Below are positions 45,414 to 47,060 of a DNA stretch of 64,000 nucleotides, one piece after another. A model generated the notes under the pieces. It made no database searches, was not told the origin of the DNA, and saw only the letters and a program-made list of their open reading frames with translations. This DNA is from an uncultured virus (IMG/VR IMGVR_UViG_3300032093_000107) (taxonomy: Duplodnaviria; Heunggongvirae; Uroviricota; Caudoviricetes). The stretch lies in the IMG/VR virus record IMGVR_UViG_3300032093_000107; one strand, given 5' to 3'. The position numbers and the translations under genes were made by a program. The stretch's first letter is position 1. Every line of letters starts with the position of its first letter.

Positions 45414-47060
45414 TTACCAGATGGTTAATTGAACCGAATCAATAGGCTGAGATACCTTCTCTGATTGATGTCGAGGATCTTTAATTGTCAAGGTACTAAA
45501 GTTGTCTAGGCAGTTGCCCCCTTTTACGGGAGGGTTAATGGGTGGATCGCTCCGTTCCCTTTCTGCTTCACAAGTACCCTTGGGACTTCCACAGACGTAA
45601 GCCAGTAAACTGACTGCTTTCCCCAACAAGGAAGGGTAGCTAAGAAGCGAACTCCTTAATACACCTATCGTACTACTAATAAGAGAAAGTGTCAAGATAT
45701 TTTTTGCTGCGTTTTCGTCAGCATTTGCAGAATAGCCACAGGACACACAGATAAACTCGGATTGAGACTTTCTGTTATCCTTGTGCTTGTGTCCACAATT
45801 AAAGCAAGTCTGGGAAGTATATTTAGGATTAACTAGAACTACTCGCCCTCCTTTCTCTTCGGCTTTATAAATCAATTGCCTTTTGAGTTCCCCAATCCCC
45901 TGATCTAAAATAGATTTGTTTAGTCCTGATTTAGCAGAAGCTCCATTATGGGCATAAGTGCCATCCTCATTTTCCTTTACTCCTGCTCGCTTGGTCATGT
46001 TTTTAAGCTTTAAATCCTCCATGGCAATATGGGAATACTTCTGAGTCAATTTGTGGCTAACTTGATGTAGATACCCTGCCCGACGGTCTTTAATTTGTTC
46101 GTGAAGCAATGCTAATTTTTCTTTGCTCTTAAGATAATTAGCCGAGCCTTTTTCTTGCCTTGCCATTTTTCTTTGTAAGTGAGCAATCTTTCTTTCTTTA
46201 TTCCGATAGTAAGCTTTAGTCTCAATATGCCTTCCCTCACTATCAGTGTAAAGATTGACACATCCTACATCAATTCCTATCTGTCTGTCGGAAGGAAAGT
46301 GCATAGGAACAGGGAGATTAATTGTAAGGTGCAAATAATAGCCAGATGCCTTTCTAACTATAGATGCCATTCTTACGTCGGATTCTTTTGATAGTCGATT
46401 GATATCGTCAATGACCAACAGCCCTATCTGCTTATTAAGAAATATCCCACTATCTCGAATTTTAATTAGAGTAGGATGCCCAACTATTAAGCTTTGTACT
46501 GAGTCTAACTTTCCTTTGTACTTAGGGAATCCTCTGATGCCTTTTTTTGCAGTCTCAAACGCTTTTGAAATAACATAACGATAAAAGCACCCTCTGAACT
46601 CCGATCCAATCTCAAATATTTTATCAGCTAAATCAGGATAAAAATATTTTTTAAGAGCCTCCTTATCAGGGGGTTTAGTTGTGTGCTTTTTAGCGTCAGG
46701 ATTGCCTAGATATGGACGTTTTTTCCTTTCCTCTAACTTAAGCAAAACGTATTCCTTTTTGTTTTTTAGATAAGCTATTTTGCAGCAAGGATTCCCTACC
46801 AATAGTTTTGTCTTGTCCTTGGGTAGTTTTTCGATATGAGGGAAGCTTGAATACAGACTAAGATAAGAAGTTTCCCAAAACTCAGGGGAAAACTCCTTAA
46901 ACTCAAACTTATCCCTTAGTCGTCTTTGGTTAACTTCCTCTTGTAATCCTACGGCTAAATTCCAAAGATACTTCAATAGGCGCATCTTTTCGTCAATTAA
47001 TGACTGCTGCTCCTCGGTTAGGGTTAGCCTAAATTTAACTACCCTTGTCATATTTTCCAT
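45414..47060 (-). CDS. c2c8: TnpB-derived type V CRISPR effector, C2c8/V-U2-like (about 548 aa)
   Basis: RuvC-I IGIDVG, RuvC-II IAMEDL, Zn finger CFNC/CVSC, RuvC-III NADENAAKNI. The N-terminal insert EFSPEFW..SY...LLVGNPCCKIAY matches recalled cyanobacterial C2c8. Stop is 68 nt from the first repeat. GAGGA RBS before ATG 47060. Confidence 0.85.
   Translation of the reverse strand: MENMTRVVKFRLTLTEEQQSLIDEKMRLLKYLWNLAVGLQEEVNQRRLRDKFEFKEFSPEFWETSYLSLYSSFPHIEKLPKDKTKLLVGNPCCKIAYLKNKKEYVLLKLEERKKRPYLGNPDAKKHTTKPPDKEALKKYFYPDLADKIFEIGSEFRGCFYRYVISKAFETAKKGIRGFPKYKGKLDSVQSLIVGHPTLIKIRDSGIFLNKQIGLLVIDDINRLSKESDVRMASIVRKASGYYLHLTINLPVPMHFPSDRQIGIDVGCVNLYTDSEGRHIETKAYYRNKERKIAHLQRKMARQEKGSANYLKSKEKLALLHEQIKDRRAGYLHQVSHKLTQKYSHIAMEDLKLKNMTKRAGVKENEDGTYAHNGASAKSGLNKSILDQGIGELKRQLIYKAEEKGGRVVLVNPKYTSQTCFNCGHKHKDNRKSQSEFICVSCGYSANADENAAKNILTLSLISSTIGVLRSSLLSYPSLLGKAVSLLAYVCGSPKGTCEAERERSDPPINPPVKGGNCLDNFSTLTIKDPRHQSEKVSQPIDSVQLTIW
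45495..45645 (-). ncRNA. Putative tracrRNA/omegaRNA-like scaffold overlapping the effector 3' end
   Basis: Anti-repeat at 45495-45516 (21/22 complementary to the consensus repeat); upstream ACGTCTGTGGA...TGAAGCAGAA motif as at tnpB 3' ends; boundaries approximate. Confidence 0.7.

Follow-up and report, generated by a model that had tools for sequence, protein, structure and literature searches.

The 3′ end of a divergent type V-U2 effector gene in a probable cyanophage very probably also encodes a tracrRNA

The locus lies on the minus strand of a 64,000-nucleotide (64-kb) stretch of viral DNA, IMG/VR record IMGVR_UViG_3300032093_000107, hereafter the window. The window is a probable cyanophage fragment, in which a 2783-aa tape-measure protein adjoins the locus and most of the scanned ORFs have no Pfam match. 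The effector gene stands alone and the adjacent array begins 68 nt past its stop codon, which is the layout of V-U2 systems. The features of the locus, ordered from the effector gene to the array, are as follows.

45414..47060, minus strand: effector gene, type V-U2 (C2c8/Cas12u2)-like, 548 aa from the ATG at 47060
45667..45695, minus strand: candidate internal sigma-70-like promoter (TTGACA, 17 nt, TACGAT; 10/12), just after RuvC-III
45621..45638, minus strand: scaffold hairpin 1, in which loop bases 45631–45628 form pairs with the final 4 nt of every repeat
45600..45615, minus strand: small lineage-specific hairpin between hairpin 1 and the omegaRNA-like stem
45562..45596, minus strand: TnpB-omegaRNA-like stem containing both motifs flagged earlier; top match of model R1 in the window
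45517..45532, minus strand: hairpin immediately preceding the anti-repeat
45495..45516, minus strand: anti-repeat, 22 bp, ending exactly 4 nt short of the repeat 3′ end
45485..45494, minus strand: leader-like motif, 149 nt upstream of repeat 1
45417..45431, minus strand: C-terminal QLTIW codons, a beta-sliding-clamp-binding-like motif (QLTLF in relatives)
45346..45413, minus strand: non-coding, repeat-proximal leader
44353..45345, minus strand: CRISPR array, in which 14 repeats (36 nt) alternate with 13 spacers (34–43 nt)

Judged by its profile scores and its place in the tree, the effector is a divergent member of type V-U2. Its best NCBIfam match is NF038192 at 295.3 bits, below the curated cut-off of 350, and among the PADLOC models Cas12u2 scores best (354 bits). 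Beyond its own small lineage, the effector shares at most 46% identity with any protein. The RuvC residues D261, E345 and D445 are intact, and all three are invariant in the 13 aligned rows. The protein row used for the effector (P0001) is its 545 aa counted from 47051. In the tree of 58 rows, which is midpoint-rooted, has open deep forks and includes no Cas12n row, the V-U2 rows form one clade of 34 rows (100/100) apart from plain TnpB. The effector is placed inside this clade, which also holds the C2c8 proteins L194 (551 bits) and L195 (527 bits), both over the cut-off, and the Microcystis type. The loci nearest to that of the effector are on viral and metagenome contigs, and the host is probably a cyanobacterium, since relatives are found in Microcystis and in phage CL131. 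Pfam matches to Cas1 or Cas2 are absent from the 38 of 77 window ORFs that were scanned, direct neighbours included, and the only transposase match among the scanned ORFs is the OrfB domain of the effector itself.

The array is read as minus-strand transcribed, like the gene, because the consensus repeats are gene-proximal, the variants lie at the far end and only far-end spacers are shared. In the 98% identical locus L167, the leader-end spacers differ and only the far-end spacers s10–s12 are common to both arrays. These differences point to ongoing spacer acquisition, with no cas1 or cas2 nearby. The spacers have no significant target in phages, plasmids, 401 cyanobacterial genomes, 28 related records and the fetched loci, where the searches returned shared parts of arrays only; a protospacer, and hence a PAM, was not found in these collections. 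By eye (44389–45309), the first 8 nt of spacers 2 and 4 are identical and a 10-nt word is common to spacers 1 and 12, so that these spacers may target a repeated element. Also by eye, about 9 nt of the leader end (45355–45363) are complementary to 44344–44352 after the last repeat; thus, the flanks of the array could pair.

The original prediction placed an anti-repeat at 45516–45495, within the codons for GNCLDNFST, and the position is indeed in the effector ORF. The segment matches 21 of 22 nt of the consensus repeat and all 22 nt of the variants starting at 44425 and 44866. The single mismatch is a U·G wobble in RNA, and therefore all 22 positions of the anti-repeat pair with each consensus repeat. 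The calculated energy of the anti-repeat:repeat duplex is −39.7 kcal/mol (z = −6.7), which is reached by none of 100 shuffles. With overlapping offsets of the anti-repeat site excluded, no other 22-nt repeat match that the 64-kb window contains beyond the array exceeds 16/22. We compared this region with that of L002, a relative with 93% protein identity. The last base of the anti-repeat and the facing base in most repeats are both changed, from U-A to C-G, and the pairing is retained. All five scaffold changes between the two loci are accounted for by this compensatory change and by four changes in loops or a bulge. Synonymous changes are found in 4 of 68 codons at 453–520, against 106 of 451 upstream (Fisher p = 0.0004), and past the anti-repeat they resume, with four synonymous and four non-synonymous changes in 25 codons. 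In most relatives the contiguous anti-repeat is only 4–10 bp, so a length of 22 bp is unusual, and duplex tests over the whole tail are significant in just 3 of 15 loci (the window, L002 and L126). The segment ACCTTGACAA was rejected in two roles: as an extension of the anti-repeat, it adds just three pairs beyond an internal loop, and as a −35 box, it lacks a −10 partner.

The earlier reading overlooked hairpin 1 (45638–45621), the promoter-like site (45695–45667) and the C-terminal motif (45431–45417). The loop of hairpin 1 has 6 nt, of which the first four pair with the last 4 nt of the repeat of the same locus in 16 of 16 V-U2 lineages; this locus's repeat ends in AAGG. When the loop is slid by −2, −1, +1 or +2, the pairing is found in none of the 16. 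The pairing involves eight loop/end types; 0 of 20000 permutations match it, and when whole types are permuted 8 of 40320 do so. In 12 of the 16 lineages, the best contiguous helix of the anti-repeat halts precisely 4 nt short of the end of the repeat. The rule was derived from the first sequences seen, and the 16 lineages are mutually related rather than independent. They were retained from 110 array-linked homologue locus rows (duplicates included), which fall into 22 groups, by removing six groups as near-duplicates (L086, L090, L174, L233, L236 and L243). Left out of the lineage counts are L193, L197 and L198, which the patterns did not parse, and L280, L281 and L283–L285, which have no row. 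For L103 and L126, the repeat ends were set by manual trimming, and the array of L200 is degenerate. In the Microcystis-type loci L004, L169 and L171, another IS605-type element, which carries a TnpB of its own, is apparently inserted into the V-U2 scaffold just past hairpin 1.

Downstream of hairpin 1, the two motifs that had been likened to tnpB 3′ ends (45598–45588 and 45570–45561) are found at these coordinates and are in frame with the effector ORF. Their likeness is borne out by R1, a TnpB-only model built from an alignment of 12 gene ends taken from plain, array-free TnpB loci. The top match of R1 in the 64 kb is at 45596–45562, with 14.9 bits (rough E-value 0.0011) against 9.4 bits for the runner-up. 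Only model positions 25–64 of 140 are matched, so the transposon-end hairpin is absent; the place of the TnpB right-end hairpin is occupied by the anti-repeat and array. At the scaffold of V-U2 loci, R1 E-values, which are rough, are below 0.01 in 3 of 13 (L002, L102 and L103), and thus the sequence likeness is uneven across V-U2. The Rfam scan of 44200–47300 gave no relevant family, only one chance match (E = 0.45). Folded alone, the scaffold is no better than shuffles (z = 0.23; 108/200), and the omegaRNA-like stem forms only when the scaffold is co-folded with the repeat. On balance, the claim of an omegaRNA-derived scaffold with an anti-repeat inside the ORF is supported. The scaffold, bearing its anti-repeat within the ORF, does give a basis for the suggested design of a single guide.

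The position of this scaffold relative to the coding frame changes within the family. Of the 16 lineages, 11 have the anti-repeat within the ORF and five have it outside, which indicates that the scaffold is kept at the RNA level. Short-tail or intergenic forms are placed beside long-tail forms in the tree, L103 with L212, P0129 with L240 and P0140 with P0138. CL131 sits inside the L126/L139 group; a premature stop and a frameshift in its tail put the QLTLW codons out of frame, and the RNA pairings are retained. In the CL131 locus (L163, 3803–4150), the same hairpin-loop pairing of 4 bp is found with a 7-bp anti-repeat. The overlap had been proposed as a snapshot of a transition; that it is a unique one is not upheld, since the Cas12n arrangement and the splitting model for TranC are known, and in-ORF and intergenic V-U2 tracrRNAs are intermixed on the tree. 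Thus, the overlap is a switching state and not a single frozen ancestral intermediate. In six of the 16 lineages (L102, L142, L212, L240, L244 and L282), the ORF spans the whole leader and stops within the first repeat. The V-U2 loci L103, L194, L195 and L200 have an intergenic tracrRNA and are the members easiest to test.

Between the scaffold and the array, no minus-strand terminator-like site is found downstream of the promoter candidate, and a V-K system produces a joint tracrRNA–array precursor, as described in part of PMC12416283; a single transcript with scaffold, anti-repeat, leader and array, as originally suggested, is therefore plausible. RNA-library contigs on the scaffold and the array give a weak hint of transcription. 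In one metatranscriptome, a single contig of 159 nt with a depth of 3 covers 45464–45622, and in two others contigs lie on the array at low depth; all are strandless and may originate from DNA. The RNA runs X18–X20 have no contig over the coding body 45715–47200, where contig gaps carry no weight. The leader-like motif ACCTTGA[A/C]AA is present once in the window, at 45494. A loose pattern of it recurs in 8 of 16 lineages, which supports a leader role in part, but its distance to repeat 1 ranges over 79–182 nt, so that it is at no fixed distance. The motif also precedes a separate array in the Microcystis locus L005, after an ORF that resembles cas2 by eye. In L002 (3543–3605), a half repeat that is absent in the window follows the stop codon, and the next 50 nt resemble the leader of the window; for these 50 nt, nothing notable is found among the matches listed.

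In our reading, the 3′ end of the V-U2 gene very probably also encodes the tracrRNA of a divergent V-U2 system. It is highly improbable that the anti-repeat is instead an inverted and decayed repeat copy without a role, beside an effector guided solely by crRNA. The 22-bp match far exceeds the anti-repeat of most relatives, as expected of a recent copy, and V-U2 appears without a tracrRNA in the literature, both for CL131 (in the available text of PMC6293099) and in a review table that lists none as required (in the available part of PMC11641405). Yet CL131 too has an anti-repeat and the loop pairing, and a copy without a role leaves unexplained the family-wide covariation of the pseudoknot, the fixed 4-nt register, the compensatory change and the synonymous constraint. 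As for how the tracrRNA arises, a start near 45660 from the internal promoter is likelier than the end of the effector mRNA. The promoter candidate is the best-scoring of the seven sites in the 3.1 kb of 44200–47300, is located 28 nt upstream of hairpin 1 and is identical in L002. Sites of 11, 10 and 9 of 12 positions are also found upstream of hairpin 1 in L195, L242 and L103, respectively; sites of at least 10/12 occur there in 3 of 16 lineages, against 0 of 186 background windows. In addition, V-K tracrRNAs carry their own conserved promoter (in part of PMC12416283). Alternatively, cleavage of the effector mRNA near its 3′ end could release the scaffold, as in the TnpB omegaRNA, with a promoter-like site that is there by chance, and we give this roughly a one-in-three standing. 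Seven sites are not many when shuffles give 5.5 ± 2.3, 13 of the 16 lineages have no site of at least 10/12 upstream of hairpin 1, and TTG ACA doubles as Leu-Thr codons of the protein.

The coding side of the same stretch raises a related question, namely why the frame is open over the tracrRNA. The effector tail extends about 100 aa past the core, and residues 463–545 are predicted with a pLDDT below 50 (57.6 for the overall model). Beta-clamp-binding motifs include a six-residue class, and a five- or six-residue motif of this kind that ends within the last 20 residues is found in 45 of 61 long tails, against a shuffle mean of 0.38 and 2 of 82 short tails. For these counts, 12 of 155 proteins without the RuvC-III pattern were dropped, and the profile of the homologue search contained the tail, which may favour motif-bearing matches. 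Among 106 further search matches, one has the five-residue motif, and that protein belongs to the V-U2 clade. We judge the chances evenly divided that a clamp-binding-like peptide at its end keeps the tail frame open. A serious competitor, although placed a little below even, is that the tracrRNA is real and the long tail is tolerated readthrough, dispensable as in Cas12n, with QLxLW as the by-product of a leader motif in the DNA. In 7 of the 12 lineages that carry the motif in the ORF, its codons begin 23–24 nt before repeat 1, often with CAG CTT, and therefore a role at the DNA level is possible. Moreover, arrays persist where the tail is lost (CL131, L103, L194 and L195) or truncated (L095–L097 and L154), and the Cas12n tail is reported as dispensable in part of 10.64898/2026.03.27.714800. 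Against this, the motif is in the ORF frame in 12 of 12 lineages with tails of at least 67 aa, and elsewhere it lies 30, 43, 86, 127 or 204 nt from repeat 1. It varies by synonymous codon changes, by W/F swaps and by five- to six-residue swaps, with most V-U2 motifs ending in W, and in L200 it closes the ORF upstream of an intergenic tracrRNA. The three runs of complex prediction for tail residues 506–545 with the E. coli clamp gave 0.55, 0.00 and 0.01 and were given no weight.

Returning to the clamp-binding-like peptide, the tail resembles known beta-clamp-binding motifs in being Q-L-x-L-F/L-like, C-terminal, conserved and on a flexible tail; the consensus given in part of PMC3971601 is Q-L-S-L-F/L. 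The same source describes a putative clamp motif at the C-terminus of the cyanobacterial IS200/IS605 OrfB, in passages that make no link to CRISPR effectors or to an overlapping tracrRNA. A further possibility, to which we lean somewhat less than to the peptide as such, is that the tail tethers V-U2 effectors, as CRISPR nucleases, to DnaN, the replication clamp of the host. Under the tethering reading, also tentative, some 300 bases would jointly encode a flexible linker, a DnaN-binding peptide, a promoter, the whole tracrRNA and part of the leader. In the window, only 2 of 71 ORFs end in a clamp-like motif; besides the effector, this is a 770-aa helicase–DNA methylase fusion (47642–49954, minus strand) that ends in QLSLL.

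We compared the locus with known systems. V-U2 systems, including that of cyanophage vB_AphaS-CL131, share with it the downstream array, the occurrence in cyanobacteria and their phages and the same clade (100/100); CL131 differs in its truncated tail, while its scaffold is the same. A parallel in arrangement is Cas12n (type V-N, V-U4), which has a tracrRNA within the ORF according to the available parts of PMC11641405, PMC12216341 and 10.64898/2026.03.27.714800. In both, the tracrRNA lies over a disordered C-terminal ORF tail (here by sequence and prediction), and a repeat-end pseudoknot is formed on stem 1 (PMC12216341 and PMC11641405, in part); in the structure of RdCas12n, repeat-end bases −4 to −2 pair and extend stem 1 (PMC12216341, in part). 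However, the effector belongs to a different lineage, with 214 bits for Cas12u4 against 354 bits for Cas12u2 and 81 bits to 9J09, and its tail ends in a conserved motif, whereas the Cas12n tail is reported as dispensable. Cas12n is further characterised by an A-rich PAM, and the spacer searches yielded no protospacer for the locus. By these comparisons, the locus appears to work like Cas12n, yet it is not a Cas12n. The novel subtypes of 10.64898/2026.03.27.714800 are without a Cas12n-like unstructured tail in the part of that source available.

The IS200/IS605 TnpB omegaRNA shares hairpin 1, the pseudoknot, the following stem and the overlap with the ORF end, and part of PMC10691335 mentions an omegaRNA that overlaps the sequence coding for TnpB. 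Unlike in the omegaRNA, the anti-repeat:repeat duplex replaces the terminal right-end hairpin and an array supplies the guides; the effector tail has 101 aa, against 12–68 aa in the plain TnpB loci compared. TranC resembles the locus in that its omegaRNA is split into tracrRNA and crRNA (PMC13565253 and PMC13639567, in part), and V-U2 may be among the published TranC clades; the effector is weakly similar to LaTranC (35 bits). Cas12k (V-K) is likewise cyanobacterial, with a same-strand tracrRNA between effector and array and two repeat pairings (PMC12416283, in part), but it is nuclease-dead and linked to Tn7-like transposon genes, with an intergenic tracrRNA, whereas the RuvC residues of the effector are intact.

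We propose the following mechanism. The internal promoter, with a start near 45660, would drive the tracrRNA, and transcription would probably continue past the leader to include the array. This RNA would retain the core of the TnpB omegaRNA, which is hairpin 1 and the following stem, and the 22-bp anti-repeat:repeat duplex would substitute for the omegaRNA terminal hairpin. The last 4 nt of the repeat and the loop of hairpin 1 would form a pseudoknot, placing the spacer where TnpB places its guide. Processing, presumably by host RNases, would yield tracrRNA and crRNA, with which the effector would target, and probably cut, DNA belonging to rival phages, to plasmids or to the host. The host Cas1–Cas2 would serve for spacer acquisition.

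V-U2 is little characterised and is listed without a tracrRNA in the literature searched. Neither a V-U2 tracrRNA nor clamp binding by a Cas12 is described in that literature, which has most subscription papers outside its scope, and the parts available of PMC10734217, PMC5027513 and PMC11656645 hold nothing on a V-U2 tracrRNA or on clamp binding by TnpB or Cas12. Codon optimisation would destroy a helper RNA that lies in a coding tail, and searches restricted to intergenic regions would miss it. The coordinates and the two pairings make the nuclease core of roughly 460 aa directly testable with a single guide, and within V-U2 a single omegaRNA-derived scaffold is available in natural variants, some inside the ORF and others intergenic. 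For no Cas12 did the literature searched describe a host-factor dependence on the clamp; the tail would possibly be the first link of a Cas12-type effector to the replication clamp. If true, attachment to the clamp would direct the nuclease to DNA under replication, for example the genomes of competing phages or plasmids.
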